Part shown: in pieces, positions 10,612 through 48,974 of the stretch
Layout of the letters: each line of letters starts with the position of its first letter
How positions within the stretch are numbered: position 1 is the first letter of the stretch
From: Pseudomonadota bacterium
Lineage (GTDB): Bacteria > Pseudomonadota > Gammaproteobacteria > JAKAQQ01
Direction: 5' to 3'
DNA: 64,000 nucleotides
Assembly (NCBI GenBank): GCA_027365475.1
Contig: DAHXNI010000080.1
Location: 5,490 to 69,489 of the forward strand
Program-made: the position numbers and the translations under genes
The notes under the pieces: model-generated
What the model was told of the DNA's origin: nothing
Seen by the model: the letters and a program-made list of their open reading frames with translations, nothing else
The model's database searches: none

Positions 10612-10614
10612 GGA

Positions 10615-22016: not shown

Positions 22017-22048
22017 CGGATAGGGCAATTTCCATATTATCGATTGAA

Positions 22049-22375: not shown

Positions 22376-22645
22376 AGAAGATGGCAGGCCTCTACCATGC
22401 CTCCCGCTGCGCACTGTGCACAAGTTCTTGAGTCGCACACGCTACCATGGCACCGCCTGCGAACCATCGCTTGAATCCGGTTGGGGTTCACATACGGATA
22501 GATTGCACTTGGTTTTTGAGCGCGCCCTTCGAGTTTCAATCGTTACACTTTACACTCAAATTGTCTCCCAGAAGGATACGAACTTGCCACTGGGTATCGT
22601 TTTTGTTATATTAGATGTGCAATACGTTTCTTTTAGGGGCGCAAG

Positions 22646-24702: not shown

Positions 24703-25464
24703 TTACGGATTACGCAGCGTGTTGTCAATCTCGCGTGTGGTAATGCGGCCCCTCAGTCGGTAGCTCTGGCCCTGGAAGATGACCGTGTGTGCCTGCTCGA
24801 AGAGGCGGTCGATGGTGGCGTTAGCGAGCACGCTGTTCGGGAAGACCTCGCCCCATTCCTCCACTGCGCGATTGGACGTGAGCACGAGCCCCGAGCTGTA
24901 CTTGTGCCGGTCCATGAGATCGAACACCTCTTCGGCCGTCTCGCGGTTCATGGCGACCGCCGCCCAATCGTCGATGACCCACAGTTTGCAGGACAAGAGG
25001 CGCTTGAAGAACTGATCGAGCGTGCCCTCGCGCTTTGCCGCCGTAATGTGCTCGATCAGCTTCTTGTGCGTGGCGAAGTAGACCCGGTGTCCACGGCGGG
25101 CGGCGCCCATGCCGAGGGCGAGGGCGACATGGGTTTTCCCGATCCCACAGGGACCGAGGAGGAGCGCGATGCCGTGTTCGTCTATGAACTGCAAGGTGGC
25201 GAGTTCGCGGATCTGCAGCTCATCGATCGCGGGATTAAAACTGAAGTCAAACGTCTCGAGCGATGCCGGCTCTGGGAAGCCCGCCTGCTTGAAGCGAAGC
25301 TTCAACGCGTTTTGTTTTCTCGCATCGAGTTCGCGCGTCAGGAGATCCGATAACCAATCGAGGTTCACCGCCTTCGGGTGTTGTAACAACACCGGCTCAA
25401 GCTCGCGTGCGGCGGTCGACAGACGCAGGCTGCGCAGTTGCGTTTTGACCGTTTCGATGTTCAT
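24703..25464 (-). CDS. istB: IS21-family helper ATPase IstB
   Basis: 253 aa; Walker A GPCGIGKTH, Walker B LWVIDDW. Confidence 0.85.
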   Translation of the reverse strand: MNIETVKTQLRSLRLSTAARELEPVLLQHPKAVNLDWLSDLLTRELDARKQNALKLRFKQAGFPEPASLETFDFSFNPAIDELQIRELATLQFIDEHGIALLLGPCGIGKTHVALALGMGAARRGHRVYFATHKKLIEHITAAKREGTLDQFFKRLLSCKLWVIDDWAAVAMNRETAEEVFDLMDRHKYSSGLVLTSNRAVEEWGEVFPNSVLANATIDRLFEQAHTVIFQGQSYRLRGRITTREIDNTLRNP

Positions 25465-25466
25465 GC

Positions 25467-27044
25467 CTCATGCTCCGGGGGTTGGGTGGGACGAAGCGAG
25501 AGCAGGTCGGTGTAGACCGACAGGTCTCGCGTGAACTTGTTTTTCGGGCGCGCCACAGGGGCTGCGTTCACCGCCGTTGCGGCTTGAGCGCGCTGCAGCA
25601 GACTCGCGACCTTGCGATACGAGTAGCACTTCAGGTCGATCGCCGAGCGGCAGGCGGCATGGATGTCGGCGGGCGCGTATTGCTTATCGAGGGAGAGAAT
25701 CCCTCAGACCTTGCGGGTATCGATGAAGCCCTGGCCCTGGGTCAGGAGCATCACGACGAGTGCTTCGACTGCCGGCCCCAATTGCCGTGCCCGCAGGCGG
25801 TAGAGCGACCGATCCGAGAGGGAGCGCTCCCAAGGCTTCAAATGCTCAGGTTTGGTTTGTTTCGAGCGGTAGGGATCGGTCAGCCGTGCATGGGTTTCGA
25901 TCAGGATTCCCCGGTGATAAATGGCCAGGCGCGTCCTCCCGCCGAGCATCAGCACCTCCTCGCCGATGTAGCGCTCCACCACCGAGTAGTAGCGGTTGGC
26001 AAACCGCACATGGCCGTCGCGGCGCACGGTGGCAGTCGCCGTCTCTTCGATCTCGTAGGCCACCGCGGGTAGCGCGCGCAGGTGCTCGCGGTCCCGAGGA
26101 AGATCATCGATCGGTCGGCGTTGCGTCGTACCGTGGCGGCGCGCATTGGCGAGCACCAGTTTGCGATCAAGATAGTCCTGCGACTCCTCGAGACTCACGA
26201 ACTCGCCATGGGCCTCGTAGAGACGGCGCACATACGGCATCAGGCGCTCGACCTTGCCCTTCTTCGCGGGCTCGCGCGGGGGCAGGCATTCGATGGTAAA
26301 CCCGTAATGCGCGGCCAAGCGCTCAAAGGCGGGGTTGAGCAGCGGCTCGAAGCGCGAGGCCTCAAGACAAAAGCACTTCGGGTTGTCGGAGGTCAGCCGC
26401 ACGGGCACGCCAGCGATCTCGCCGAGCATGCTTTCGATGGCCGCGAGCGTGGTGGCGACGTCGTTCCTCCAGACGAGCCGCACCATCAGATAGCGGGAGA
26501 AGCCGAGCACGCCGACGAAGGCCCAGAGCGCGCGCCGGGTGCGGTGCGCGGGATCCGCGACCCGCGCGAGCAATCCCCAGTCGAGAATCAGGGCCTCCCC
26601 GGGCTCGTGCACGATCTCGGGGATCACGCGCTCGCCTTGGGTGCCGCGGGCGAGTTCGGCCAGCGCATGGCGATGCAAGAAGCGGTAGAAGCTGGGGCGC
26701 GTGACGGCAACACCGAGCGTGGCGCCGAGCTCTTCGAAGACAGTGATGGCATGCCAGCCCGCGCGCAACCGCTCCTCGATCCACGCGCCATGGGCACTGA
26801 GGACGGCATCGATGCCCGAACGCGGCTCGGTGCGGCGATCGGCCCGATCGGGGAAGAGTGCCTCGGGGTAGACCGGCAGCGCGCGGCCCGCCAGGTAGCC
26901 GTGCTCGGCGGCGAGCGCCTTGATCTTCTCGAAGCGCCCGTTGCCAATCTTGAGATGTTCTTTAATCCAGCGGCGGCTTTTGCCCGCCACCAATAGCTCT
27001 ACGATCTTTCGGTCCACCAGTCGCCTCCGGGTTAACTGCCTCAT
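25467..27044 (-). pseudogene. istA: IS21-family transposase IstA, interrupted by an in-frame TGA at 25704-25706
   Basis: 446-aa ORF with HTH and DDE domains. A C-terminal ~79 codons (GILSLDKQYAPADIHAACRSAIDLKCYSYRKVASLL...) continue in the same frame after the TGA, down to the istB start. Either a nonsense mutation or a sequencing error. Confidence 0.75.
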
Positions 27045-27124: not shown

Positions 27125-28008
27125 GTTCCAGACAGCGCTCCGAAAAGGCGTTCGTGGCGGCCCTGGCCGAGATGTATGGGCAGGGGTCTCCACCCGCAAG
27201 GTCAAGGCGATCACCGAGGAGCTCTGTGGCCACCAGTTTTCCGCGTCCAGCATCAGTGCGATCAACCACAGTCTCGATGCCACACTCACGGAGTTTGCCG
27301 AACGACGCCTCGACGAACCCTACCCCTACCTCATCCTCGATGCCCGTTACGAGAAGGTGCGCGAAGGCGGCGTGATCCGTTCCCAGGCGATCCTGATCGC
27401 GATCGGCATCCACCCGGGCGGCCGTCTGGAAGTCCTGGCGGTGGACGTGGCCCCTCGCGAGAGCGCCTCGAGCTGGAAAGACTTCCTGGTGCGCCTCAGG
27501 GAGCGGGGCCTGCACGGCGTCGAGTTCGTGGTCTCCGACGACCATGCGGGACTCAAGCAGGCCCTCACCGAGGTCCTGACCGGCGCCGCCTGACAGCGGT
27601 GTTACGTCCATTTTTTAAGAAATGCACTCGACTACCTCCCCCGAAGAGCCGATGACGACTGCCTGCAGGAGCTGCGGTGGCTCTATGACCAGCGGGACCT
27701 CACAGAAGCCCAGCGGGATCTCGCCGCGTGGCTGTCCAAGTGGTCTACGAAATACCCAAAACTTGCCAACTGGGTCGAGGACAGCATCGGTGAGACGCTC
27801 ACCTTCTACCGGCTGCCCCGAGCCCACCACAAGCACATGAAGTCGACAAATATGTTGGAGCGCTTAAATGAGGAGATCAAACGCCGCACCCGAGTGGTGC
27901 GGATCTTCCCGAACACCGAGTCCTGTCTACGCCTGGTACGGGCCCTGTGCGTCGAGATCCATGAAGCTTGGCTTGAGGACAACCGCACCTCAACATGGAT
28001 GTGCTGAA
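27125..28008 (+). pseudogene. IS256-family transposase, C-terminal ~290 codons: ~18-bp internal deletion, a frameshift in a G-run (~27165), and a TGG->TGA nonsense at 27590-27592
   Basis: The sequence is spread over different frames. The in-frame TGA sits where the family-conserved Trp of WQRCxVHFxRN is expected. Confidence 0.7.
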
Positions 28009-28098
28009 AGAGCAGCGTCGCGAACGACTTCGGCAGGCCGCCTAATGAAACCGTCCTTCATACCAAAAATGAATTTGCACAACTTGACGTACAGAACC

Positions 28099-28127
28099 GC
28101 TTCCGACTTGCTGCCGAAGGTCGCCAT
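28099..28127 (-). pseudogene. 29-bp remnant of the 5' end of a tyrosine integrase gene (element A integrase, deleted)
   Basis: gcttccgacttgctgccgaaggtcgccATG matches the intact integrase at 48699-48725 plus its start at 48790-48799. The same downstream P-arm-like sequence and att follow. It directly abuts the IS256 right IR. Confidence 0.55.
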
Positions 28128-28216
28128 GGCTGCTCCTCCATTGGCCTCAGTTCGAGCTCAGTGGACCAATAAAGGTCAAGTCATGAGTCGTGGCATGTTA
28201 TAAGTTATTGATTTTG

Positions 28217-28262
28217 TGGTAGCGGGGGCAGGATTTGAACCTGCGACCTTCGGGTTATGAGA
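28217..28262 (-). repeat. exact copy of the 3' 46 nt of tRNA-fMet (att site between island elements A and B)
   Basis: The revcomp gtctcataacccgaaggtcgcaggttcaaatcctgcccccgctacca is identical to the 3' half of the intact tRNA at 48898-48943. Confidence 0.85.
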
Positions 28263-28545
28263 CCTGAAAAAGGCAAAAATAGATCAATCGGTTACGTACG
28301 ATATAACTTGTTATTCAATCACTTGGGATCACATCGTTGACCCGGCGATAACCCTGTTTTAGACTCCGAGTGGACCAAATTTGTCCCAAGAAAATGATTT
28401 TAACACTCTCGGATCTCGTATGGAAATGGACGCGCCAGTTTCGGTTGTGTGAACCCTGCAGCGTAATAGGCGACCGGACTCGCGCTCGTGCTGTAGCTGT
28501 ATGTACACCACGATCCAAGTGGCTCAGAAAGTTTCACTTGAGTCA
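28217..28545. repeat. ~320-bp direct repeat, copy 2 (see 22049-22375)
   Basis: Alignment by eye. Confidence 0.8.
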
Positions 28546-28754
28546 CAAAGTCGGGCCGCGCCCGCATCGGCCGGTTCCTAAACCCACCGGAGCAAACCGC
28601 TGATGGGCGGAGTGGGGCTGGTTATGGTTTCATCTCCCAGACATCTGTAGATCAGCATTATGATGCAAGCACTCAGGCCGGTATACTGCAACAGATTGTC
28701 CGAGCGTTTCCAGCTGATCGGTAACACACACTGGATTTAGGGGGGTTCGCCACT

Positions 28755-30324
<1,570 letters not shown>

Positions 30325-30332
<8 letters not shown>

Positions 30333-30651
30333 GGCTTTCGACATCGAAATTCTGCGCGGAGCCGCGGCACAGGGGCGCCTTCACTGGCACCAGCATGCGT
30401 TGGAGCGCTTTCTGGAGCGCGGGATTTCCCGCGCCGAGATCGTAAGCGCTATCATGAACGGTGAGGTGATCGAGGTCTACCCAACGGATCGCCCGTATCC
30501 GAGTTGTCTCATTCTGTACGTGGAGGCGGAGCCGGTGCACGTGGTGGCCGCCGCCGAGCCTGCCACGCGGATGTGCCATGTCATCACCGCGTACCGGCCG
30601 GACCTTGAGTATTTCGAACCGGATTTCAAGACCAGGAGGAAAAAGTCATGA
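30325..30651 (+). CDS. DUF4258-family protein (putative toxin of a DUF4258/YgiT pair)
   Basis: 108 aa; [30 protein letters not shown]...HVVAA...VITAYRPD fits the DUF4258 pattern. 8-bp overlap with hsdM, 4-bp overlap with the next gene. Confidence 0.6.
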
Positions 30652-30893
30652 GCGAGGACTTCGGGCATTGCCCCCTTTGCGGCGGCGAAAAGCAACCGGG
30701 CACCACGACCTTTGCCGTCGATTTGAAATTCGGCGTCGTGGTGGTCAGGGAAGTTCCCGCGTTCGTCTGCACGAAATGTGGCGATGCGTGGATCGACGAT
30801 CCGGTGGCGGCGAAGCTGGAAGGCATCGTTACGGACGCGCGTCGCAAGCACGCCGTGGTGGAGGTTACGCACTGGCAGCAGGTAGCGGCGTGA
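30648..30893 (+). CDS. YgiT-type zinc-finger protein (MqsA-like antitoxin partner of DUF4258)
   Basis: 81 aa; CPLCGGEK...REVPAFVCTKCGDAW two CxxC pairs, typical YgiT/MqsA N-terminal zinc finger. Confidence 0.65.
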   Translation: MSEDFGHCPLCGGEKQPGTTTFAVDLKFGVVVVREVPAFVCTKCGDAWIDDPVAAKLEGIVTDARRKHAVVEVTHWQQVAA

Positions 30894-31250
30894 GCCGCGA
30901 GGATGCGACCGGCGAGCCGCCGCAAGGCGGCCGACAATGGGCGTGATGATCTGGCGACTCGCTTGCCGGGGCGGTGCGGGATCCCTGTCCGGACGGCGCG
31001 CTGAGCTGCCGGCACACACACGGTCGAGTGACGAGTTCGAGCGCTTGAGGTTTCATGCCGGCGCCTCAAGTTCAAGGCCACAAATTCTGACCTTGAACCG
31101 AATCCCTTGAGCCGAAGTAAAAGCGGCCCGATTTTGGACCATGAGATGAGAAATGAAAACGCGGTGGCTTGCAGTACCGCTTGAACAGCGGTTTGCCGAG
31201 TCTGAAAGGCTGCAAAAGACGATACGAGAAAATCGGCGGAGGTTCTTGTC

Positions 31251-32129
31251 ATGAGTGGTAGCTGGAGTCTGAGTCAGACGACCTTTGCGGAGCTTGACTG
31301 GAAGATGCTTCAAGGTCGACCAGGGCTGGGTTTCTATCGGCTCATAGCGCAGGTTGATCTTACCACCCACGGCAAACAGGTGGGAGAAGAAGTCGCGGTA
31401 ACAAATATTGGTGGTGAACTGTGGATACGCGGAAAGGGCAACCAGGAACACTTCTTGGGTTACCTAAGGCGGCAAGGCACAGAATTCCCCCTTACAACCT
31501 ATCGGCATATATCCAAAGGGAATATCTCACTTGAGATTGAATTGGATGCAAGACGCATTGAAGCATTAGAGCAAATCAGGCTCGGAGGGGACTTATCTTT
31601 CAGGATGAACTTATATGGAGTGGCCTCTGGCGGCCGCGAAAAAAGTTCACAGGAAGTGCAGGCCACACTTCAATACCGGGCCAATCAGAGCACCTGGGCC
31701 GAGATACTTGAGCAGATGGGCTATCGGCAAACGATGCTCTTGGAGATTCCAGTGCCCGGAGACGAGGTCAGCCCACAGTTACAGGAGGCGGTGAAGCATC
31801 TCCAAACTGCGCAGACACATATGCTGCGTGGGCATTTCCGGGACGCGGTCGGTGCATGCCGAGATGTTGTGGAATCGCTGTCTATCACCTTGAGTGACGA
31901 GAAAGACCAATTGCCGGAGGCGATCCAATCTTGGTTCAAAGACACGCGGTCAATGGATAAAAAAGAAAGACTCCGGATCGTTCGGCGGGCGCTCAAGGTA
32001 TTGACCCATCCGGCCCGGCATGCGGACGAGGTCTCGGCTTCGATAGAGTGGGGACCGACGGATGCGAGGACGGTTATTCTTATGGCAGCAGCTTTACTCC
32101 AAATAGCCGCTGAAGAGAAACAATCATAG
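31251..32129 (+). CDS. hypothetical protein (292 aa), no recognisable domain; embedded between the TA pair and hsdS
   Basis: Clean ATG start. Appears AT-richer than its neighbours by eye. The long ORF is not overlapped by a convincing alternative. Confidence 0.5.
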   Translation: MSGSWSLSQTTFAELDWKMLQGRPGLGFYRLIAQVDLTTHGKQVGEEVAVTNIGGELWIRGKGNQEHFLGYLRRQGTEFPLTTYRHISKGNISLEIELDARRIEALEQIRLGGDLSFRMNLYGVASGGREKSSQEVQATLQYRANQSTWAEILEQMGYRQTMLLEIPVPGDEVSPQLQEAVKHLQTAQTHMLRGHFRDAVGACRDVVESLSITLSDEKDQLPEAIQSWFKDTRSMDKKERLRIVRRALKVLTHPARHADEVSASIEWGPTDARTVILMAAALLQIAAEEKQS

Positions 32130-32224
32130 TGTTGATGAACAATGACGGGCAGGAAATTCGCGCACATGCCCAACTTGGCGTGGAGGCACCTGGATATGGA
32201 GAAAATGAGGTCATTGCTCGGAAT

Positions 32225-33520
<1,296 letters not shown>

Positions 33521-33524
<4 letters not shown>

Positions 33525-35083
33525 ACGCCAAGGTGCTGTCGCCAGTACTTACCAGCCGACGATCGATTCTTGATCTGACGTACAACGAAGCGCGCACCTT
33601 CTTGCTCAAGCCGGAAAGTTATTGCAGTCTGGACTTGCCGCCGTACATCGCCTTTGGCGATTTAATTAATGGTGTACATCAGATCCTCGACGGAAAAAGA
33701 CTGACAGATTTTAAGAAAAAGAAACAGGCCAATCCGAGAGACCACGATGACGTCAATTACACCATCCTGCACAACAAGGATGGAAAGTATGCGTGGCGTC
33801 CATTCCAACTGATTCATCCGGCCCTGTATGTTTCGCTCGTGCACGCGATTACCGAAGAGGACAGCTGGAAGCTGATTCGTGATCGTTTTCAGAAATTCGC
33901 GACCAATAACAAGATACGTTGCCTGAGTTTGCCAGTGATGTCGTTCTCGGATGAGAAAGACCGGGCAGAACAGGTCTCGCACTGGTGGAACGCGGTTGAG
34001 CAGCGCTCCATCGAGCTGTCACTTGACTACGGCTACCTTATCGAAACTGATATCACTGACTGTTACGGTGCCATCTACACGCATTCGATTGCCTGGGCGT
34101 TGCACACGAAAGACGAGGCGAAGAAAAAAACAAACCGTAATAACCCGAACCTCATCGGCAATGTCATTGACAGCCATATTCAGGACATGCGCCACGGCCA
34201 GACCAACGGCATTCCACAGGGCTCTGTATTGATGGATTTTATCGCCGAGATGGTGCTCGGCTTTGCCGACCAGGCGTTGTCAGAACGTCTCCAGACGAAG
34301 AAAGACATTACGGATTACCGGATATTGCGTTACCGGGACGATTATCGCATCTTCATCAACAGTCCGCAGGTTGGCGATGAGATCGTCAAGTTGATCACCG
34401 AAACAACTGCGGATCTTGGCCTGAAGCTCAGTCTGCCCAAAACCAAAATGAGCAACAACATTGTGCGAGCCTCGATCAAGAGCGACAAGCTGGCATGGAT
34501 GGCCCGAAAACAATCCGACGAGAACCTGCAGAAGCACCTGCTTATCATTTACGGCCACGCGACCAGCTTCCCCAACACGGGTAGCCTTGTAATCGCACTG
34601 AATGGTTACCACAAGCGCGTCTCAAAACTTACATCACTCTTAAGTCCCCAGCCATTGATCGCCATCGTGGTTGATATCGCCTACCGCAATCCGAGAACCT
34701 ACCCTATCTGTGCAGCGATCCTCAGCAAGCTGCTGAGCTTTATTGCAAACAATGACGAGCGTCTGGACATTGTCAAGCGCATCCGGAAAACTTTCTCTCA
34801 GATACCCAACACCGGACATATGCAAATCTGGTTGCAGCGAGTGACATTCCCGCTCGACAGAAATATCGACTATGACGAGACCGTGTGCAAGCTGGTGGTA
34901 GCAGGCAATACAGGCAATATTAGGCCTCTGTGGAATAATGACTGGATTTCATGTCCCGAGCTTAAAGCCGCCGTAAACGCGACCAAGATCGTCGACACTA
35001 CAACTCGCGACAAAATAGCTCAGGTCATCTCGCCGAAGGAGGTAGAGTTATTCCTGTCCAAGACTGGCGAGGGTTATTACTGA
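33521..35083 (+). CDS. Reverse transcriptase (RNA-directed DNA polymerase), stand-alone 520 aa, defence-associated (Abi/UG/DRT-like)
   Basis: RT motifs: ETDITDCYGAIYTHSIAWAL (motif A, catalytic Asp), GIPQGSVLMDFIAEMVL (motif B'), ILRYRDDYRIFI (motif C, YxDD), LGLKLSLPKTKM (motif D). ~110-aa N-terminal and ~170-aa C-terminal extensions of unknown function. The ATG overlaps the hsdS stop (ATGA). AT-richer than flanking hsd genes by eye. Confidence 0.85.
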
Positions 35084-35186
35084 TGGCCTTTCTCGCCAAA
35101 GCTTGCTTGGAAAGCATGCTGTTAGCCAATCGGCTATCCGGCGACCCGCGCATCGCTAACACTGAAAAGAGCATGCCGACACGAAG

Positions 35187-36338
35187 ATGACCCGAATCCC
35201 CATCAACCCCGATCTGCTGATTTGGGCGCGCGAGCGTGCTGGATTGGACAGGCTCGCGCTGGCAAGACCCTTCCCCAAACTCTCCGAGTGGGAAGACGGG
35301 GCACTAGCGCCAACCTTGCGGCAATTAGAGAACTTCGCCAGAGCGGTGCATGTGCCCGTGGGGTTCTTGTTCTTGCCCACTCCGCCGGAGGAGGTGCTAC
35401 CTATCCCCGATTTTCGTACGCTGGCTGCCCGTAAAGTCTCCCGCCCCAGTCCAAATTTGCTAGACACGATTTATCTGTGCCAGCAACGGCAAGACTGGTT
35501 TCGCGAATATGCCCGCATACACGCGCTGACACCATTACCCTTCGTGGGCAGTGTACGCGTGCGGGATGCACCCGAGCACATAGCAGGAATGATGCAGCAG
35601 GCGCTGTCACTCTCGATCTCGGAGCGACAGCAGCTGCCCACCTGGACCGATGCCCTGCGCCAGCTCATCAATAAGACGGAAGACGCTGGCGTTCTAGTGA
35701 TGTCCAGCTCCACCCTCGGTAGCAACAGCCACCGCAAGTTGGATGTGTCGGAGTTCCGCGGTTTTGCGCTGGCGGACGACCTGGCACCACTGGTATTCAT
35801 CAATGCCGCCGATAGCAAGGCGGCGCAGATGTTCACGCTGGCACACGAGCTGGCGCACCTGTGGCTGGGAGAGAGCGGCATTTCCAATACCGAGGCGGGG
35901 CAGTTTCCCAAGCAAGGTGTCGAACGCTGGTGCAACGCGGTGGCCTCGGAATTTCTGGTACCCCTAGCTGCGCTGCGGCGCAAGCATCAGGCCGATGTGC
36001 CGTTAGAGGCTGAGATTCAGCGCCTGGCGCGTACTTTCAAAGTCAGTACGCTGGTGGTCCTACGCCGACAGTTTGATGCGGGTTTCATTGATCAGACCAC
36101 CCTCTGGCAGAACTATCTAGACGAACTGGCCCGTATCCGCGCGCTCGACCAGAGTGGTAGCGGTAGCGGCGATTTCTACCGCACTCTGGGAGCACGTACC
36201 GGAAAGCGATTCGCACGAGCAGTGCTCTCTAGTACGCTGGAAGGGCAGACCCTGTTTCGGGATGCCTTTCGGATGCTGGGCGTGCGCAAGACTTCCACTT
36301 TCTATGAGGCGGCGCGCGAGCTGGGGGTGATGCTGTGA
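35187..36338 (+). CDS. XRE-family HTH domain fused to ImmA/IrrE (DUF955) zinc metallopeptidase
   Basis: 383 aa; N-terminal HTH region; HEXXH zinc-binding motif in FTLAHELAHLWLGE. Confidence 0.8.
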   Translation: MTRIPINPDLLIWARERAGLDRLALARPFPKLSEWEDGALAPTLRQLENFARAVHVPVGFLFLPTPPEEVLPIPDFRTLAARKVSRPSPNLLDTIYLCQQRQDWFREYARIHALTPLPFVGSVRVRDAPEHIAGMMQQALSLSISERQQLPTWTDALRQLINKTEDAGVLVMSSSTLGSNSHRKLDVSEFRGFALADDLAPLVFINAADSKAAQMFTLAHELAHLWLGESGISNTEAGQFPKQGVERWCNAVASEFLVPLAALRRKHQADVPLEAEIQRLARTFKVSTLVVLRRQFDAGFIDQTTLWQNYLDELARIRALDQSGSGSGDFYRTLGARTGKRFARAVLSSTLEGQTLFRDAFRMLGVRKTSTFYEAARELGVML

Positions 36339-36835
36339 GCTACCTGCTTGATGCTAACGTCTTCATCCAGGCCAAGAACCTGCACTATGGACTGGATTTC
36401 TGCCCCGCCTTCTGGGATTGGTTGATCGACAATAACGCGGCTGGTCGTGTGTTCAGTATCGATAAGATCGCGGATGAAATCGCGGCTGGCGCCGACGAAC
36501 TGAACGATTGGGCGCGTGAACAGAGCCATGGCCTGTTTCTACAAACCGGCCCGTCGGTCGCGGCCCAGTTCGGGAAGGTCAGCACTTGGACTATGCAGCA
36601 ACAGTACGAACCGGGAGCTATAAACACCTTTTTGCAGGTAGCTGACTTCTATCTCATTGCCCACGCCCTAGCGTCTGGGCATGTGGTAGTGACTCACGAA
36701 GTGCCAGCCAACTCGGCCAAGCGTGTCAAAATCCCAAATGCATGCATCGGTTTGGGTGTGAAGTTCATGACACCCTATGAAATGCCGCGAACAGAACGTG
36801 CACGATTTGTTCTGAGCAGGGGCAGTGGTCACTGA
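36335..36835 (+). CDS. DUF4411-family protein (PIN-like; usual partner of ImmA/IrrE-HTH proteins)
   Basis: GTG start giving [18 protein letters not shown]..., the characteristic DUF4411 N-terminus. 4-bp overlap upstream, 1-bp overlap with hsdR. Confidence 0.7.
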
Positions 36836-39800
36836 TGAGTTTGTTTTCTGAATCCACCGTCGAATCAGCCGCCCTTGGGTGGCTGGAGTCCCTCGGTTAT
36901 GCCATCCTCAACGGTCCCGATATTGCCATCGGCATGCCGGATGCCGAGCGTAGCGATTACGGCCAAGTGGTGTTGCCGCAGCGGCTGCGCGAAGCCCTAG
37001 CGCGACTTAACCCCGAGCTTCCCGCCGAGGCGCTGGAAGACGCCTTCCGCAAGCTGACGCGGCCGGAGGGTGTTGAGCCAGTGGCGCGCAACCACGGCGT
37101 ACATCGCCTTCTGGTGGAAGGGGTGACGGTCGAATATCGCACCGCTGCTGGTGAGATCCGTGGTGCACAAGCACAGGTAATCGACTGCGATATTCCAGAA
37201 AATAATGACTGGCTCGCGGTCAACCAGTTCACCGTTACCGAAAACAAGCACAATCGGCGGCCGGATGTGGTGCTATTCATCAACGGCCTGCCGCTGGTGC
37301 TGATCGAGTTGAAGAATGCCGCTGACGAAAACGCCACCCTATGGTCGGCTTTTCAGCAGCTCCAGACCTACCAGGCGGAACTTCCCACGCTCTTTGCCTA
37401 TAACGCGCTGCTGGTGATTTCAGACGGTGTCGAGGCGCGCATCGGCACGTTTACCGCCGGACGGGAGTGGTTCAAACCCTGGCGCACGATTGCCGGTGAA
37501 ACGCTGGCCGATCCCAACCTGCCGGAATTGCAGGTGATGCTGGAGGGTGTGTTCAATAAGCGGCGATTGCTCGCTCTTCTGCGGGATTTCATTGTCTTCG
37601 AAGATGAAGGCAGAGGGCGCTTAGTCAAGAAGATGGCGGGCTATCACCAGTTCCACGCCGTGAATGTGGCTGTCGCAGAGACACTCCGAGCGGCGAAACT
37701 GGGGGCAGCCGAAGCCATGGGGCGTTATGAGAGTGGACGCCAACCCGGTGGCGATCCCGGTGATCGGCGCATTGGCGTCGTCTGGCATACCCAGGGCTCC
37801 GGCAAGAGCTTGACCATGGTTTTCTATGCCGGTCGCATTATCCGCGAACCCGCGATGGCGAATCCCACTATTGTGGTCCTCACCGACCGCAACGACTTGG
37901 ACGATCAGCTTTTCGGTACCTTTTCCCGCTGCACCGACATGTTACGCCAGCCGCCGGTACAGGCCGACAGCCGAGCTGATCTCCACGACAAACTCAACGT
38001 GGATGCGGGAGGTGTGGTGTTTACCACTCTCCAGAAGTTCTTCCCCGAAACGAAAGGTGACCGGCACCCGGTGCTTTCAACACGGCATAACATTGTGGTG
38101 ATTGCCGATGAGGCGCATCGTAGTCAGTATGACTTCATTGATGGCTTTGCCCGCCACATGCGAGATGCACTCCCCCATGCCTCCTTCATCGGCTTTACCG
38201 GCACCCCGATCGAGCAAACCGATGCCAATACCCGGGCAGTGTTCGGCGATTACATCAGCATTTATGATATCCAGCGGGCGGTTGAAGACCGGGCGACCGT
38301 ACCGATTTACTACGAGAGCCGCCTTGCCAAGCTCAATCTCAATGAAGCGGAAAAGCCGACCATCGACGCTTCCTTCGAGGAAGTCACCGAGGGCGAGGAA
38401 GTGGACCGCAAGGAAAAACTCAAGAGCAGGTGGGCGCAGCTTGAAGCTGTGGTCGGCGCGGAGACGCGTCTCAAGCGAATTGCTGAGGATATCGTCTCCC
38501 ATTTCGAGGCACGACAGGAGGCCATCGACGGCAAGGCGATGATTGTGTGCATGAGCCGGCGTATCTGCCTGGATCTCCACGATGAGATCAAGAAACTGCG
38601 CCCGTCCTGGATTCACGCCGATGATGATAAGGGTTTGATGAAGGTAGTCATGACTGGCAACGCCTCGGAAGGTCCCCGGGTGGCTGAACACGCGCGTAAT
38701 AAGGCACGGCGCGAAGACTTGGCCAATCGCTTTCGGGATGCCGGGGACCCCCTGAAACTCGTCATCGTCCGGGACATGTGGCTCACAGGCTTCGATGCCC
38801 CGAGCCTTCATACCATGTATCTCGACAAGCCCATGCGCAACCATGGGCTGATGCAGACCATCGCGCGGGTAAACCGGGTATTCAAGAACAAACCTGGCGG
38901 ACTGGTTGTGGATTATCTGGGACTGGCGCCGGCACTCAAGGCGGCGCTCGCCACCTACACGGAAAGCGGCGGTACGGGCCGGACCGCTATTGACCAGAAA
39001 GAAGCCATCGCGGTCATGCAGGAGAAATACGAGATCTGCACCGGACTGCTGCATGGTTTCGATTGGTCCCGGTGGAGTTCGGGTACCCCACAAGAGCGCT
39101 TAGCGCTGCTACCGGCCGCCCAAGAACATCTCCTCAAACAAGAGGACGGTAAAACCCGTTGGCTTCAAGCTGTGCAGGCATTGTCTCAAGCTTTTGCCCT
39201 CGCGGTTCCGAGTGCCGAGGCCCTCGATATCCGCGATGATGTGGCATTCTTCCAGGCCTTGAGGGCAAGTCTTGCCAAGCGTGCACCGGGAGAAGCGAGC
39301 TCGGAAGAAGATCTCGACCAAGCGGTTCGCCAGATCGTCTCCCGGGCGGTGGCTTCGGAAGGCATCCTGGATATTTTCGCTGCGGCGGGTTTGAAAAAAC
39401 CCGATCTCTCGATCCTCTCCGAAGAGTTCCTGGCAGAGGTACGCGGCATGCCCCAGAAGAATCTGGCGGTTGAATTGTTGCGCAAGCTTCTGGACGGTGA
39501 GATCCGCACCAGCGGTCGCAAGAATATAGTGCAGGCCCGGACTTTCTCAGAGATGCTGGAGAAAACCCTGCATCGCTACCAGAGTCGGGCGATCGAAGCC
39601 GCCCAGGTCATCGAGGAACTCATTGATCTGGCCCGGGATATCCGGGAGGCCCAGGCGCGGGGCGAACAACTGGGATTGACGGACGATGAGATTGCGTTCT
39701 ACGATGCGCTGGAAACCAATGACAGCGCAGTGAAGGTGTTGGGCGAGCCGACGCTCAAAGACATTGCCCGGGAACTGGTCAAGACTGTGCGCAGCAATGT

Positions 39801-39966
39801 CACCATTGACTGGACGCTGCGGGAAAATGTCCGCGCTAAACTGCGCGTCTCGGTCAAGCGCATCTTGCGCGAGTACGGCTATCCGCCGGATAAGCAGGAA
39901 AAAGCCACACAGACTGTTCTTGAACAGGCAGAACTCTTATCCGGCCAATGGGCTGAGGTCTCATGA
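36835..39966 (+). CDS. hsdR: Type I restriction enzyme, endonuclease/helicase subunit HsdR
   Basis: 1043 aa; N-terminal nuclease domain, SF2 helicase motifs ([10 protein letters not shown]; [15 protein letters not shown] box), C-terminal HsdR_C. Confidence 0.9.
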
Positions 39967-40127
39967 AATGGGTTCCGGTGGTGATTTTCTGGTCGTCGCA
40001 ATTGTGTGGTGGATCGCCTTTCGAATAATTTGGACACACATCTGGGCGTCGAATGAGAGCAACGGTAAGTGTACATGTGCGAGATGAAGCGTTGGTCAGT
40101 CGGAGATATGGAGTATGCTTACTTTCA

Positions 40128-40880
40128 TTATGACTGAAGCAAACCTTCAAGCCTAATATGCATACCTGCGGTCGCCAATTCCTGAGCAACTTTGGTACGC
40201 CACGCCCCCTTTTCGTCAAGTTCGGTGAACAAGACCCCATGAAGATCGGAAGGAACGTCAAGACCTGATACAAACAGTGCAGATACACGGCTCCGGCCGA
40301 GCTTGCCCGTGAAGTACCCGAGTTCAAGTATTACGTTCTGGCGTGCTCTCGGCGCGAGGTCTGCCTGGGCGCCAGCCTTCGATCCAACGTCATCTCCAGT
40401 CAAGAGAACGACTGCAAAGGGTACATCAGCATAGGACTCAAACTTTTCAATGACGGTTCTACCCTGGTTGGCCTGTTCATGGAGGATGATCGGTTCAAGA
40501 CCTACATGCTCCAAAAAGCGCGCGACTAACTCCTTTGCAGCTATGTCGTGGCCATGTACCAAAAAGACATTTCGGGAATTCGATTCGGTTACAGGTGCGC
40601 GCTGCGCAGATCCGGTCGGTAATTTTGACTCAACCAATCTAACAGGCTCAATTCGCAGAGCCAAACCTTCGAGATAACCAAGCTGGCAGTCACGATACTT
40701 CCGCCATTCAAGGTAAGGGTACCCTGCGTCAAACGCTGCGAATGCGGAAGCGGTCTCCTCTCCAAGTGCTGCACGAAGGAAAGCCTCGGATCGGCTAGAC
40801 CAGGTTGAGTATTCGGTCGCGGAATCGCATTTCAGACCAATGTCAATCAGCGTTTCGACTCGCTGTGCAAAAGACTCCAT
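40128..40880 (-). CDS. TIR-like (COG4271/PF10137-type) domain protein with ~110-aa N-terminal domain of unknown function
   Basis: C-terminal ~135 aa NVFLVHGHD..ARFLEHVGLEPIILHEQANQGRTVIEKFE..VPFAVVLLTGDD...RARQNVILELGYFTGKLGRSRV matches the consensus of the 'predicted nucleotide-binding protein containing TIR-like domain' family. Confidence 0.55.
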   Translation of the reverse strand: MESFAQRVETLIDIGLKCDSATEYSTWSSRSEAFLRAALGEETASAFAAFDAGYPYLEWRKYRDCQLGYLEGLALRIEPVRLVESKLPTGSAQRAPVTESNSRNVFLVHGHDIAAKELVARFLEHVGLEPIILHEQANQGRTVIEKFESYADVPFAVVLLTGDDVGSKAGAQADLAPRARQNVILELGYFTGKLGRSRVSALFVSGLDVPSDLHGVLFTELDEKGAWRTKVAQELATAGMHIRLEGLLQS

Positions 40881-41039
40881 GGTGGCTCCGCTCCGTTGTG
40901 TGCGCTCTAACGATTAATATAGGGACGCAAGTTTCCGTATAACAATTATTAGGGTGCCCATTGTGCTCATGTAATCCCCTGATTCGCAAGTACTTTCAGA
41001 TTTCCTGCGTTTCTATAATACCCCCTATCATACGGACAG

Positions 41040-41335
41040 TTTGGAATGGCCCTGACTGGCGAGTAAGCGCCAGGTTTCGGCGTCAACGCAGAGTCAGGCC
41101 CTGAATGCAATTGTTTTTCTCTATGACTGTATCTTGTCCAAGCCTTTGAGCGAAATGATGGGGCTCAAGCGGGTTCCGCACCGTCACCGGATTCCAGTGA
41201 TCCTGACCTGAGAAGAGATCAAAGCGGTGCTGGGCTTAATGGCGGGTCTCGTTCGGGACGAGCTCCCGTCCGCGGTCGATGCCCACGAAAGACTGCATGG
41301 AAGCCGATTCGTAGACGGCGTCTTCGAGGGCAGAA
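41040..41335 (+). pseudogene. fragment of an integron-integrase/XerD-like tyrosine recombinase (N-terminal domain), with in-frame stops
   Basis: LASKRQVSASTQSQALNAIVFLYDCILSKPLSEMMGLKRVPHRHRIPVILT*EEIKAVLGLMAGLV parallels IntI ([22 protein letters not shown]...[22 protein letters not shown]). No catalytic domain follows. Confidence 0.45.
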
Positions 41336-41384
41336 CCCGCCCTCATATCCCGATTTACCCGAATACCTGAATAACCATCGAGGG

Positions 41385-42356
41385 ATGGTGAGCATTGATA
41401 CCGATTGGCACAGGGGTGGGCATATAATCGAATCCCTGATCATGAGCGCTCTTTTTTACGACCCTGAAAAAAAGCTGCGGTACGCTCTACCGCCTCGGCT
41501 CCCCCACTGGCTGCCCCAGGCGATCGCAGAGTTCGTGAGGAAGATCGCCGCCCGGGAACCCGCTCCTCAAAACCTCGATGCGGCACTCTGGTGGCACGAA
41601 GATTACGGGCCGCGCCTCAAGCGGCTCATCACCCATCGGGACATGGAGCGGGTCTGGACCCGGCTGGCCCAAGCTCCCCTCAACCCGAGCATACAAGCCG
41701 TACCCGGAAATGTAGAATCGATCCGGGAGGTGTTTCTCGTCTCCTACCTCCGCACCGCTGTCTATCCGGGCCTGCCCGAATCCTTCGTGGAGAGCATCCC
41801 CTCCTGCGAGGAAATCCAGGAAACCCTCTGTGACATCGCCCGGCTCGCCGAAAAACTCTGCGACCGGCTCGGCGGGAAAACCCCAGATTGTGATCATCAC
41901 TTCACCCCGTGGCTCATGTTTGAGGCCGCGTCCAGAAAGGTCCGGTCCGACCCACAACTCGCCCCCCTGCGCGAGAAACTCCTTTGGCTCCAAAAGGTCC
42001 ATGAAAACCATTACTGGCGACCGGGCAATCCCTCTGCCGACGACCACCTGATCAACCTCCGGGCACCGTTCTCCTCCCTGAACCTGCAGCTTGAGAGCCT
42101 GGGCCTCCTGGCCCGCATCGCCGCCAAAGAGCAGCCCAAAACTCCCAAGCGTTCAAAGACCTTATATCCCCGCCTCCTCGCCCAGACCCTTGCCCGCCTA
42201 GCTGATTCCTGCCTCGCGGGTCACTACTGGCAGGCCATCGCCACCACCGTCACGGTTTCTCTCGCACTCGATCCCCCCTTCACCGAATCCCACGTCCGCT
42301 CCTGCCTTCGGGAGGGCGCAGGAAAATCACGGAAAAGCACCCCGAATCATACGTAA
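41385..42356 (+). CDS. hypothetical protein (323 aa; alternative start at 41445), no recognisable domain
   Basis: Long ORF with a GAGGGA RBS-like sequence 4 nt upstream of the ATG; divergent from the TIR-like gene. Confidence 0.45.
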   Translation: MVSIDTDWHRGGHIIESLIMSALFYDPEKKLRYALPPRLPHWLPQAIAEFVRKIAAREPAPQNLDAALWWHEDYGPRLKRLITHRDMERVWTRLAQAPLNPSIQAVPGNVESIREVFLVSYLRTAVYPGLPESFVESIPSCEEIQETLCDIARLAEKLCDRLGGKTPDCDHHFTPWLMFEAASRKVRSDPQLAPLREKLLWLQKVHENHYWRPGNPSADDHLINLRAPFSSLNLQLESLGLLARIAAKEQPKTPKRSKTLYPRLLAQTLARLADSCLAGHYWQAIATTVTVSLALDPPFTESHVRSCLREGAGKSRKSTPNHT

Positions 42357-42473: not shown

Positions 42474-44534
42474 GGTTTAACAAGTAGCAAAAAATATGTT
42501 TCCCATTCAAGTTGTTACGATTTCAAGAATCGAGTGTGCGTTACCAACGCCTCAACGTGGTATCAAACGACCAGTTTCTTGGTCTCCCCCGGCTTCGGAC
42601 CAAGCCCCAAGGCCTGGTAAATCGCCTGGAGTTCGGGTTCGGCCACCGTGCTCTGGCGCACATGCAGCGTGCGCCCATCGCGGCGGCGAACGCTGGCCGT
42701 GACACGGCGCTGAACCGATAAGATCTCGCGCAGGCTCGACCAGCTCTCGTGGATGCCCTTTTCCTTCAGTGGGCGCCGCAGGGTCTGCACCACTTGATAG
42801 GCGAGCACGCTGATGAACAGATGCCCATCGGTGCGCGCTTCCTTGTGATGATAGACCGGCCGCAGGCCGAGCTCCGACTTCAGGCTGCGAATCACCGCCT
42901 CCAGGTCGGTCAGCATGATATAGGTGTGCCACAACCGCGCCTCGTCCCAGTGGGTTTCATTGGTGCGAAGACAATAGACGCCGGGGTGGGTAAGGAGCGT
43001 GCCCTCGATTGGCTGTTTCACCCAAGTGAGCGAGGCCGCTTGCTCACCGCTCTCATCGGGCGTCAAGGCAATGAGGTAATGCTGTCCCACGCGGCTTCGC
43101 TCCTTCAGTCGTCCAATGCGTTCCTGGAGCTTCGAGATGCGTTTTTCACCGCGGGGTTTGTCGAGTCCCTCGGCCATGGCCTTCAGCCCGGTCTCGAGCC
43201 GCGCACACAGCCGCCGCGCGATCGCCGACTCCTTCGCTTGGCGTCCCGTGGAGTAGCAATGCAGTTGCACCTCGCTGCCATCCGCGCTGGTTACCTTCTG
43301 GATCTGGAGGGTCTCGTGGCTCGCCGTCTCGATCGCGATGGCAGGGGCCGCCTCGAAGTGGCGCGTGCGCTTGCGGCTGACGACGAGATAGCGATACCCG
43401 CAGGCGACGAGCCAGGCGAGGTTCGCCTCACTCGCGATACCGGCATCCATCACGATGAGACAGCCGCGGGGAGCGCCCAGCCCCGCCAGCATCGCTTCGA
43501 GCGTTTTGACCTCCGCGGCATTGCCGGCAAAGGTCTGGGAGCGGCGAATAAAGCCGCTGCCATCGAGTACGAGCCCGAGCGTCACGAGCGGACAATCACT
43601 TCGTTTTTCCTTGGAACGCCCGCGGGCAGCCTGGGGATTGGCGGCGGCGGTGCCTTCAAAATACGTATTCGTGAGATCGTAGAGCGTTACCGTGGTCTCT
43701 AGCCCAAAGAGATCGCGGACGTTCTCAAAGAGCTTGGATTCGATCGTGGCGCGGTATTTGATGAGCCGATCCGATGCCCGATAGAGCGCCATCATCGACA
43801 TCGCCTCGAAATCGACTTCCATCAATTCACCCAAACCACTCGTCATCGTGAGCCAGCGCCAGGTGGCCAGTTCCGAGCCCGGTTGGGCCAGGCGTCCGAT
43901 CACGTTGGCCAGGGCGGCGTTCTTTAATTTACCATTGAAGCCACACTCGGTGAGGATCGCCTCCAGCCCCAGTTGCTTCATGGCATGCCAGGCGACGTAC
44001 TCGACACCGATCGAGCGCGGACGCACCTGCTCGAGCGAGTCGAGGGCGACCTCCGCAAACACCGGGGGCGCGGTGGCGGAGGCTACCGCGGCAGGGGTTG
44101 GCGCGCGCACCACCAACCGCGCCGCATAGCGTTGCGCCAGGCGCTCGAGGCGCGGGCCCAAGGGCACGGCCGAGAGCGATGTCTGGGCGGAGAGAATCTG
44201 CTCGAGGCGGGCACAGAGCGCGGGCCAATGCTTGGGGGCCACGCCAAAATCCCGCCCGAGATTGAGCCGCGCCACCTGGCGGACACTCTTTCCGTGTCGT
44301 TCGCTGCTCACCAGGCGATAAGTGACGTAGGACTCCCCATTCAGTTTGCTGCGCGTGGCGGTGCGGCGGATGAACATGCACGCACGCTACACACCCGCGG
44401 TGCCCGGGACAAGGGGGTCAATGAAATATTATGGCACTACAAACGGCCCGCGCGAACCGGGTGGTCGAAACATCAATACGTTACCTTCGCCAAGGGGGTC
44501 GAGAAGGCATGTTTTGGAAGGGGAAGTGTTAAAG
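42474..44534 (-). mobile_element. IS1634-family (IS4 superfamily) insertion sequence, ~2.06 kb, flanked by ACCGG on both sides
   Basis: Imperfect terminal IRs (GGTTTAACAAG.. / ..CTTTAACAC); single 604-aa transposase; ACCGG at 42469-42473 and 44535-44539. The exact ends are uncertain. Confidence 0.6.
42563..44377 (-). CDS. IS1634/IS4-family DDE transposase
   Basis: 604 aa; the size and the MFIRRTATRSKLNGESYVTYRLV... N-terminus are typical of IS1634-group transposases. Confidence 0.7.
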   Translation of the reverse strand: MFIRRTATRSKLNGESYVTYRLVSSERHGKSVRQVARLNLGRDFGVAPKHWPALCARLEQILSAQTSLSAVPLGPRLERLAQRYAARLVVRAPTPAAVASATAPPVFAEVALDSLEQVRPRSIGVEYVAWHAMKQLGLEAILTECGFNGKLKNAALANVIGRLAQPGSELATWRWLTMTSGLGELMEVDFEAMSMMALYRASDRLIKYRATIESKLFENVRDLFGLETTVTLYDLTNTYFEGTAAANPQAARGRSKEKRSDCPLVTLGLVLDGSGFIRRSQTFAGNAAEVKTLEAMLAGLGAPRGCLIVMDAGIASEANLAWLVACGYRYLVVSRKRTRHFEAAPAIAIETASHETLQIQKVTSADGSEVQLHCYSTGRQAKESAIARRLCARLETGLKAMAEGLDKPRGEKRISKLQERIGRLKERSRVGQHYLIALTPDESGEQAASLTWVKQPIEGTLLTHPGVYCLRTNETHWDEARLWHTYIMLTDLEAVIRSLKSELGLRPVYHHKEARTDGHLFISVLAYQVVQTLRRPLKEKGIHESWSSLREILSVQRRVTASVRRRDGRTLHVRQSTVAEPELQAIYQALGLGPKPGETKKLVV

Positions 44535-47770: not shown

Positions 47771-48799
47771 TCAACCCAGTCTCTTGGCGAGATCCTCGGC
47801 CCGGAGATGGGTATAGCGCTTCAGCATCTCAAGCGTCTTGTGTCCGGTGATGGCCGCAACCTCCATCGGATTGAACCCTTTCTCGAAGAGCCGGCTCGTG
47901 GCTTCATGCCGGAGATCATGGAATCTGAGATCCACCATCGGCTCGAGCGCCTGTGAGCTTTGGCTCTTCTTGCCCATCGCAGCCCGTGCCGTGATCCGTG
48001 CGAATGCCTGGCTGATCGCATCTGCCGTCATCCCGAACACCGAGCCATCAAGCCTCCGGGGCAGCCCCTTGAGCACCTCGAGCGCCCGGCTCGAGAGCGG
48101 CACATCCCGCCTCTCCCCGTTCTTCGTCTCCTCGAGATGGATGACCCGATTCCCCCAGTCCACCTGTTCCCAACGCATCCCTGCAATTTCTCCCCGCCGC
48201 ATGGCCGTTTCCAGGGCGAGCACGATAATCGGCCCGATCATCCCCCCATAGGCCTTGGCACGGGCCAATAGCTCATCACCCTCCCCCGGCTCAAGTCTCC
48301 GTTTCCGTCCGGGCGGAAGCTTGGGACGCGCCGCGCGTGCCAGGGCAACCGGGTTCTGGAGGCTTTCCATGCCCCACGAGGTCCGGGCGAGTTCGAAGAC
48401 ACGGGAGATGATACCGAGGTCGAGCTTGATCGTGTGCGGGTTCATGCCTTCCATCTCGCGCTCGTGAATGAATCCGGCAATGTCCTTCCCGCGAATGCCG
48501 GCGAGCTTACGCAGGGCAAGTGGTCGCTTCTCAATGGCACGGGCCCGGTAGGTGGCCATCTTCCGGCCCTTAAGCCTTGGCACGTACTCGGTCACGAAAC
48601 GCTCCAGCGCCTCGGCAAGTGTCGTCTCCTCCGCCTCGGTGCGCGAGAGAAAGATTCCCCGGCCCATTTCGGACTCGATGCCGTGTGCCCAAGCTGCCGC
48701 TTCCGACTTGCTTCCGAAGGTCGCCGTCTCGACCGGATACCCACGCCGCCGGACGCGCACCCGCCACTGCCCCGATTTCCGCCGTTCGAATGTCGCCAT
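47771..48799 (-). CDS. int: Tyrosine-type site-specific integrase (phage integrase family) of the tRNA-fMet island
   Basis: 342 aa; catalytic R...HxLRH...Y motifs (RRGEIAGMRWEQV; HDLRHEATSRL; LKRYTHL); start 98 bp from the tRNA 3' end. Confidence 0.9.
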   Translation of the reverse strand: MATFERRKSGQWRVRVRRRGYPVETATFGSKSEAAAWAHGIESEMGRGIFLSRTEAEETTLAEALERFVTEYVPRLKGRKMATYRARAIEKRPLALRKLAGIRGKDIAGFIHEREMEGMNPHTIKLDLGIISRVFELARTSWGMESLQNPVALARAARPKLPPGRKRRLEPGEGDELLARAKAYGGMIGPIIVLALETAMRRGEIAGMRWEQVDWGNRVIHLEETKNGERRDVPLSSRALEVLKGLPRRLDGSVFGMTADAISQAFARITARAAMGKKSQSSQALEPMVDLRFHDLRHEATSRLFEKGFNPMEVAAITGHKTLEMLKRYTHLRAEDLAKRLG

Positions 48800-48897
48800 G
48801 GCTGCTCCTCCATTGGCCTCAGTTCGAGCTCAGTGGACCAAATTTGGACCAAAAGGTCAAGTCATGGGTCGTGACAGTTTCTATCTTATTGATTTTG

Positions 48898-48974
48898 TGG
48901 TAGCGGGGGCAGGATTTGAACCTGCGACCTTCGGGTTATGAGCCCGACGAGCTGCCAGACTGCTCCACCCCGCA
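48898..48974 (-). tRNA. tRNA-fMet (initiator, anticodon CAT), intact; integration target of the island
   Basis: The revcomp (T)GCGGGGTGGAGCAGTCTGGCAGCTCGTCGGGCTCATAACCCGAAGGTCGCAGGTTCAAATCCTGCCCCCGCTACCA folds as a cloverleaf. It has three G-C pairs in the anticodon stem and an unpaired 1:72 position, both hallmarks of bacterial initiator tRNA. The encoded CCA is present. Confidence 0.9.

Follow-up and report, generated by a model that had tools for sequence, protein, structure and literature searches.

An Abi-P2 family polymerase gene nested between hsdS and hsdR of a type I restriction-modification operon

What kind of reverse transcriptase (RT) is encoded between the specificity and restriction subunit genes of a type I restriction-modification (R-M) operon, and does its placement there reflect a function or only a permissive site? 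The question was raised by a 64,000-nucleotide stretch of gammaproteobacterial metagenomic DNA (the window; assembly GCA_027365475.1, contig DAHXNI010000080.1, positions 5,490 to 69,489 of the forward strand), in which an open reading frame (ORF) of 520 aa at 33521..35083 on the plus strand carried RT motifs. A preliminary description, made from the letters of the DNA, had proposed that this ORF might represent an uncharacterised DRT-like family with N- and C-terminal extensions that could not be assigned to any domain, possibly working with a structured RNA template. The profile, structural and comparative evidence reported here pointed to a different answer. The gene was read as an Abi-P2 polymerase that a type I R-M operon carries as autonomous defence cargo, and a probability of about 0.8 was given to this joint reading.

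Family identity, domains and proposed activity

The RT was evaluated against profile libraries and a solved structure. The AbiP2 model of PADLOC (PDLC03744) matched the protein with E=4e-204 and 677 bits, and the match ran over RT residues 12-514 and profile positions 3-486 of 489. The runner-up PADLOC models were RT_UG14 (168 bits), Drt6 (158 bits) and Drt4 (141 bits), and the score for AbiK was 95 bits. The founding proteins of the family scored below the window RT on the same AbiP2 model, with 537 bits for ORF570 of P2-EC30 and 530 bits for ORF544 of P2-EC58. In a sequence-level alignment with PDB 7R08, a crystal structure of the P2-EC30 Abi-P2 protein, RT residues 13-511 were matched by phmmer to chain residues 32-540 (E=4.6e-96). 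The identity of the RT to the P2-EC30 and P2-EC58 proteins was 36% and 34%, respectively, over approximately 97% of the length. By these comparisons the RT is an intact member of Abi-P2, one of the class 1 UG/Abi RT-like polymerases, and the gene adds a member to an already characterised family with a solved structure. The preliminary description had proposed a profile comparison and had named a place squarely inside a characterised family as the outcome that would speak against a new one; the RT fell squarely in Abi-P2. Its view that the gene belongs to the Abi/UG lineage of RTs, as a stand-alone gene of the defence type, was retained.

The full-length match to 7R08 indicated that both extensions are known Abi-P2 domains. 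The RT-like domain, which comprises the fingers and the palm, corresponded to approximately residues 13-325 (33557..34495, plus strand; PMC9508834), and the RVT_1 match ended within it at residue 312. The N-terminal stretch of about 110 aa was part of the enlarged fingers subdomain. The alignment continued without a break into the C-terminal helical domain, approximately residues 326-511 (34496..35053, plus strand), an alpha-solenoid that takes the place of the thumb in Abi polymerases (PMC9508834). The boundary between the two domains is approximate.

The catalytic and priming positions were assessed in an alignment of 79 sequences, namely the window RT, 76 genomic relatives and the two P2 proteins. 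Motif A, DITDCYGAIYTH, occupied residues 177-188, and its catalytic aspartate, Asp177 (codon 34049..34051, plus strand), was present in 79 of 79 sequences. The same held for the YRDD motif at residues 271-274 (34331..34342, plus strand), which lies in YRDDY (271-275), for Lys307-Thr308 in LSLPKTKM (303-310) and for Tyr42 (codon TAC, 33644..33646, plus strand), the two P2 references included. Tyr182, Tyr186, His188 and most of NGIPQGS.LMD, which reads NGIPQGSVLMD at residues 229-239 of the window RT, were invariant or nearly so. The arginine of YRDD is typical of Abi-P2, as this family conserves Arg in the Y/FxDD motif where other RTs carry a hydrophobic residue (Simon and Zimmerly, PMC2602772). 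Tyr42, in LPPY, paired with Tyr61, in LPAY, of the P2-EC30 protein and is the predicted protein-priming residue; the Y61F substitution abolishes DNA synthesis by Abi-P2 (Figiel et al., PMC9508834). The RT gene was intact, and all of the catalytic and priming residues checked were kept. A decayed or inactive relic carried along in the operon was therefore considered very improbable: its total GC content below that of its neighbours was the only hint in this direction and was nothing specific, whereas the ORF was unbroken at a length typical of the family, the residues were intact and invariant, and the identical protein occurred on three contigs from two data sources, JGI and Logan.

The family assignment was set against the view that the RT belongs to an uncharacterised DRT-like family with novel terminal domains and perhaps a structured RNA template. 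In its favour, Pfam recognised RVT_1 (residues 136-312) as the sole domain of the protein, and NCBIfam holds no Abi-P2 model, its best matches being Drt4 and Drt3b far below their cut-offs. The scores of the DRT models were 114 against a cut-off of 450 for Drt4, 100 against 350 for Drt3b, 25 against 390 for Drt2 and 27 against 550 for Drt5. Against it stood the full-length AbiP2 profile match and the full-length alignment to the solved structure. Moreover, a search of Rfam with permissive filters over 28000-41500 gave no match at E<=1, and the predicted fold of the 103-nt spacer that follows the RT gene was no more stable than that of shuffled sequence (z=-0.42). Some relatives also lacked intergenic space for an RNA; in two related loci (L023 and L038), both the hsdS-RT and the RT-hsdR junctions were overlaps or gaps of at most 1 nt. 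An RNA template was thus rejected, and these results agreed with the published template-independent chemistry of the Abi-P2 family, for which no such RNA is expected (PMC9508834). An uncharacterised family was judged highly implausible.

Of the explanations considered, an origin of the RT from a retron or a group II intron was the least probable. A weak likeness in the RT core was detected, with 54.5 bits for the group II intron RT/maturase model TIGR04416 and 23 bits for NF038233 (retron_St85_RT), but both values were far under the curated cut-offs of 300 and 235 bits. No intron or retron RNA family was found, Pfam recognised no maturase or endonuclease domain in the protein, and the DNA upstream was coding sequence of hsdS, which left no space for an msr/msd region. 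In this respect the preliminary description, which had excluded both classes on similar grounds, was borne out.

The most likely function, as judged from homology, is protein-primed, untemplated synthesis of single-stranded DNA (ssDNA) for phage defence with no non-coding RNA. The Abi-P2 protein of P2-EC30 is a trimer that carries out template-independent, protein-primed DNA synthesis (PMC9508834), and ORF570 of P2-EC30 excludes phage T5 in E. coli, in a manner that requires the YRDD region (PMC8632793). By homology with that enzyme, the window RT would form a trimer; Tyr42 of each subunit would receive the first nucleotide, and that subunit would then elongate untemplated ssDNA of random sequence. 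The helical domain at the C-terminus would stand in for both the thumb subdomain and the template strand, and no RNA partner would be needed. The later steps may be modelled on DRT4 and DRT6, for which constitutive ssDNA synthesis, removal by host exonucleases, stabilisation by a phage protein and aborted infection have been proposed (PMC12783706). DRT4 acts on phage T5 (PMC12783706), as does Abi-P2 (PMC8632793). By this analogy, the RT would synthesise ssDNA at all times and host exonucleases would trim it; in an infection, a phage protein that binds or anneals ssDNA would stabilise the product, which would then accumulate and cause the infection to abort. The hsd operon would supply transcription, the overlap with hsdS would probably supply translational coupling, and the RT would act as a second line of defence that is mechanistically independent of the restriction enzyme.

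Position after hsdS and its recurrence in related loci

The RT ORF began at the first in-frame start codon past a stop, and its start codon lay over the stop codon of hsdS in the sequence ATGA (33521..33524, plus strand), the three bases of the hsdS TGA being shared with the start of the RT gene. The coordinates, the length, the motifs and this overlap were all as first described. The term translationally fused, which had been used for the arrangement, was overstated; the overlap was only 4 nt long and the frames of hsdS and the RT were different, which suggests translational coupling and not a protein fusion. Such overlaps were not peculiar to the RT. Among the other genes of the operon, which are described below, they occurred between hsdM and DUF4258 (-8), DUF4258 and YgiT (-4), M78 and DUF4411 (-4), and DUF4411 and hsdR (-1).

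The base composition of the operon was examined with regard to the history of the gene. The total GC content was 0.504 for the RT, 0.566 for hsdS, 0.583 for hsdR and 0.619 for hsdM, and the GC content at third codon positions (GC3) was 0.647 for the RT, 0.635 for hsdS and 0.676 for hsdR. The RT is AT-richer than its neighbours, as had been noted. The secondary insertion that had been deduced from this did not hold, because GC3 matched that of hsdS and hsdR, so the low total GC reflected a composition rich in Lys, Asn, Ile and Asp rather than a recent foreign origin. A late, separate insertion of the RT was rejected on the basis of this GC3 and of the location of the whole operon in one att-bounded island.

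The recurrence of the arrangement was explored in a scan that took one genome from each GTDB species and gave 153 confirmed relatives; the best 80 of these (47-83% identity) were used for synteny. The ORFs of these loci were searched with iteratively built hidden Markov models for HsdM, HsdS and HsdR, and the adjacent ORFs were compared with Pfam. The best 80 relatives came from many phyla, and the loci with an adjacent hsdS belonged to hosts of more than 10 phyla and to different Hsd families. In 19 of the 68 loci with enough upstream sequence (~28%), the RT was immediately preceded by hsdS (within 100 nt), and 15 of the 19 had a stop/start overlap of -4, -1 or similar size. The hsdR gene followed the RT within 20 nt in nine loci. 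In 41 loci, 3 kb or more of sequence was available to each side, and 12 of these had hsdM or hsdS upstream together with hsdR downstream. The RT was the sole gene between hsdS and hsdR in L007/L008, L016, L023, L033 and L038. Approximately 70% of the related loci had no adjacent hsd gene.

In the phylogenetic tree, the window RT lay in a large environmental clade set apart by a long branch from the pair of P2 prophage proteins. Embedded loci were distributed across most of the environmental subclades and intermixed with non-embedded relatives, and a Bacteroidota subclade was mostly without hsd neighbours. The identity of the RT to that of the window and the identity of the corresponding HsdR showed no correlation (Spearman rho=-0.005, n=21). 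The HsdR identity to the window ranged from 25% to 78%, and some of the partner systems were only 25-28% identical in HsdR and HsdM. The lack of correlation indicated that the pairing of RT and Hsd had been re-formed or exchanged many times and had not been simply inherited; co-inheritance as a cause of the synteny was thus unsupported. Relatives on plasmids (~40% identity) were solitary in Paracoccus and lay beside a probable type IIG enzyme in Pediococcus. The RT behaved as a single-gene system: its neighbours varied among the 80 loci, no RNA family was matched in Rfam and a solitary plasmid copy exists.

Several observations were made on the surroundings of the relatives. Upstream neighbours other than HsdS were often R-M parts (MmeI, Eco57I, N6_N4_Mtase and SWI2_SNF2), and the association of the RT may extend to R-M systems beyond type I. 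In six loci (L003, L022 and others), a nucleotidyltransferase of the Polbeta/NTP_transf_2 type, MNT-like, replaced HsdS just upstream of the RT. The Pediococcus case (L087) was found on plasmid pL21534-4 of Pediococcus damnosus, a mobilizable plasmid from a brewery environment; at 5989-11235, the Abi-P2 relative (39% identity) was directly upstream of a 1195-aa protein annotated with a TaqI-like C-terminal specificity domain, which is probably a type IIG R-M enzyme. The RTs of L007 and L008 were nearly identical with identical gene spacing, and these loci came from metagenome-assembled genomes of different phyla (Thermodesulfobacteriota and Zixibacteria), which reflects either a binning error or a very recent transfer. 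HsdR was apparently split into two ORFs in both.

The regular placement raises the possibility that the RT is a true Abi-P2 enzyme whose function is bound to that of the type I enzyme, in the manner of PrrC and EcoprrI. The environmental clade would then be a dedicated partner of type I R-M, repeatedly captured after hsdS and translated in step with the specificity subunit. Held in check by HsdM, HsdS or HsdR, or monitoring them, it would sense the loss or inhibition of restriction, for example by phage anti-restriction proteins, and fire an ssDNA-based abortive defence, as a polymerase counterpart of PrrC. The frequency of the RT directly after hsdS, the overlapping codons in most of those loci, the closeness of hsdR and the loci in which the RT stands alone between hsdS and hsdR are compatible with such a role. 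The spread of hosts over more than 10 phyla and the divergent partner Hsd families, uncorrelated with the RT, suggest repeated capture at the same position. PrrC, at an equivalent embedded position, is released by Stp, an anti-restriction peptide of phage T4 (Payne et al., 2024, preprint). On the other side, the founding Abi-P2 acts from within a P2 prophage that has no hsd genes in its vicinity, and about 70% of the related loci as well as the plasmid copies lack adjacent hsd genes. Embedded and non-embedded RTs were intermixed in the tree. Insertion just behind hsdS may simply do the least harm. Embedded genes are in general co-oriented (96.7%), and the operon of the window also holds three unrelated cargo modules. 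A dedicated coupling to the restriction enzyme was hence regarded as unlikely.

The reading as an Abi-P2 polymerase that acts as autonomous cargo was preferred. The autonomy of the RT was supported by the solitary plasmid copies, by the roughly 70% of loci without adjacent hsd genes and by the uncorrelated divergence of RT and HsdR. Three points weigh against it. The identity to the characterised Abi-P2 enzyme was only 34-36%. The step of ssDNA accumulation was borrowed from DRT4 and DRT6 rather than from Abi-P2, and its application here stays an analogy. Furthermore, the regularity with which the RT stood directly after hsdS (19 of 68 loci) exceeded what would be expected of a simple passenger, and a functional tie to R-M is possible.

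The type I operon, its cargo and the island

The genes of the operon were all on the plus strand, in the order hsdM, DUF4258, YgiT, a 292-aa protein, hsdS, RT, M78, DUF4411 and hsdR. The RT was embedded in the sense of Payne et al., as it lay between the hsd genes of one system and on the same strand. The neighbours named at the outset (HsdS, the helix-turn-helix/Peptidase_M78 protein, DUF4411 and HsdR) were recovered, with the RT co-oriented and tightly packed among them. The methyltransferase subunit gene hsdM was located at 28755..30332 (plus strand; HsdM_N and N6_Mtase, TIGR00497, PDB 3KHK with E=4e-147). The specificity subunit gene hsdS, at 32235..33524 (plus strand), had two stretches of Methylase_S and hence two target-recognition domains; the call was 427 aa long, with an alternative ATG start at 32241. 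The restriction subunit gene hsdR was located at 36835..39966 (plus strand; HSDR_N, ResIII, SWI2_SNF2, T1R_D3-like and T1RH-like_C, TIGR00348 with 566 bits). Assignment of HsdR to a type I subtype was abandoned, as its best solved relative, the HsdR of EcoR124, matched too weakly (E=5.5e-34, partial coverage). Consensus scans detected a single promoter-like site, at 28337 ahead of hsdM, and the gaps between the genes of the operon contained neither promoter-like nor terminator-like sites. These scans give weak evidence that hsdM to hsdR form a single transcription unit, and expression of the RT through the hsd operon with coupling to hsdS translation is plausible.

The remaining cargo consisted of three modules. 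Directly after hsdM, a DUF4258 protein (30325-30651) and a YgiT-type zinc-finger, MqsA-like protein (30648-30893; TIGR03831, YgiT_finger) were encoded on the plus strand with overlapping codons, and they resemble a toxin-antitoxin pair. The 292-aa protein was encoded at 31251..32129 (plus strand), between YgiT and hsdS. No family in Pfam, PADLOC or NCBIfam matched it, its GC3 (0.56) was the lowest of the operon genes, and a homologue of 43% identity was encoded just upstream of hsdS in a locus of candidate division NPL-UPA2 (L034); the protein may be a further R-M-embedded defence candidate. Downstream of the RT, the M78 protein (35187-36338, plus strand) was RmrA-like and matched the RosmerTA antitoxin (RmrA) models, with E=1e-19 for PADLOC RmrA. 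It was followed by the DUF4411 protein (36335-36835, plus strand), which was recognised by Pfam and for which PADLOC has no model. The M78/DUF4411 pair also followed the RT in one other locus (L041, 11627-13263; 56% identity each), where the RT came after hsdR and not before it. A three-gene cassette of RT, M78 and DUF4411 was therefore rejected, and the parts were treated as independent modules.

The spacer between the RT and the M78 gene contained an ORF of 35 codons (35083-35190, plus strand), whose start overlaps the stop codon of the RT gene (TGATG) and whose stop overlaps the start codon of the M78 gene (ATGA). It was annotated by one gene caller and was absent from the calls of another. 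If it is real, a stop/start overlap exists at every junction from hsdS to hsdR. In L041, an unrelated ORF of 31 codons also ended on the M78 start. The 35-codon ORF could be a leader peptide or a product of chance.

The window is chromosomal DNA from a metagenomic contig (JGI 3300024473), with pnp, infB, nusA, nadB and nadA on the left and the nuo operon on the right. A direct repeat composed of the 3' part of tRNA-Met and its flank was present at 28171..28264 (family D1) and was 91% identical to its right copy at 48852-48945. The right end (47771..48974, minus strand) also contained a tyrosine integrase (47771-48799, Phage_integrase) and tRNA-Met (48898-48974). The repeats and the integrase at tRNA-Met placed the type I operon in an integrative island of approximately 20.7 kb. 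A third, weaker copy of the repeat at 22003-22096 suggests two tandem integrative islands at tRNA-Met, one of about 6 kb and one of about 20.7 kb, and the smaller of these contained AbiEi/AbiEii and an IS21 element.

Other features of the islands were also recorded. The first ~440 nt inside both left ends were 93-94% alike (22097-22377 versus 28262-28542), and a remnant of an integrase 5' end at 28097-28169 matched 48697-48841. Around the R-M operon, AbiEi/AbiEii (22646-24324, plus strand), istA/istB of IS21 (24703-27044, minus strand) and a DDE_Tnp_1 transposase (42563-44377, minus strand) were encoded. A 250-aa protein with a TIR domain of the CAP12/Pycsar type (40128-40880, minus strand) matched the PADLOC candidate PDC-S35 with E=4e-67; its gene converges on the end of hsdR and had a markedly low GC3 of 0.49.

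Relation to known systems and meaning of the placement

The closest characterised systems were the Abi-P2 proteins of the E. coli prophages P2-EC30 (ORF570, 7R08) and P2-EC58 (ORF544), with which the window RT shared the profile, the two-domain layout, YRDD, the priming tyrosine, a similar length and the organisation as a single gene. It differed from them in its sequence, being 34-36% identical and part of the environmental clade beyond the long branch, and in its location: those two occupy the hypervariable region of P2 prophages, whereas the window RT belonged to a type I R-M operon in a tRNA-Met island. The helical domain of the P2-EC30 protein also had several short insertions that the window RT lacked. 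AbiK of Lactococcus, DRT4 (UG15) and DRT6 are likewise class 1 UG/Abi polymerases with an RT core and a helical domain, and they share protein-primed, template-independent ssDNA synthesis. Their profiles were far from the window RT in score, as given above. Moreover, AbiK and DRT4 are hexamers, whereas Abi-P2 is a trimer, and the sequences of the helical domains cannot be aligned.

In genomic position, the nearest likeness was to PrrC of the EcoprrI type I R-M system, which is likewise a single abortive-type gene that lies within an hsdMSR operon and shares its orientation. The prrC gene likewise lies between hsdS and hsdR. PrrC combines an ABC-ATPase with an anticodon nuclease, whereas the window RT is a polymerase; the two have no sequence relationship and share their genomic position alone. 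The embedding of defence genes in loci of type I R-M, BREX and DISARM systems, with co-orientation in 96.7% of cases, has been described as guilt by embedding, and PrrC is the classic example of functional coupling (Payne et al., 2024, preprint). The window resembled those loci in carrying co-oriented known or candidate defence cargo in a type I R-M system, with four such modules. It differed from them in the regular placement directly after hsdS, which was specific to the clade of the window RT. The main text of Payne et al. does not mention Abi-P2, and the term AbiP2 is absent from 11 supplementary files of that paper. In the structural papers on Abi-P2, mentions of hsd were limited to E. 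coli strain genotypes. No report of a regular hsdS-AbiP2 arrangement was found in the literature searched, the coverage of which was incomplete; existing surveys with PADLOC or DefenseFinder may already contain the pattern implicitly.

Taken singly, the gene adds little, as Abi-P2 has been characterised and nesting in type I R-M has been documented. The comparative by-product is the frequent placement of this polymerase immediately after hsdS, mostly with overlapping codons, in many phyla and with different Hsd families. If this placement reflects function and not a permissive site, it would offer a tractable route to what triggers Abi-P2 and to whether template-independent polymerases back up restriction that has been inhibited.

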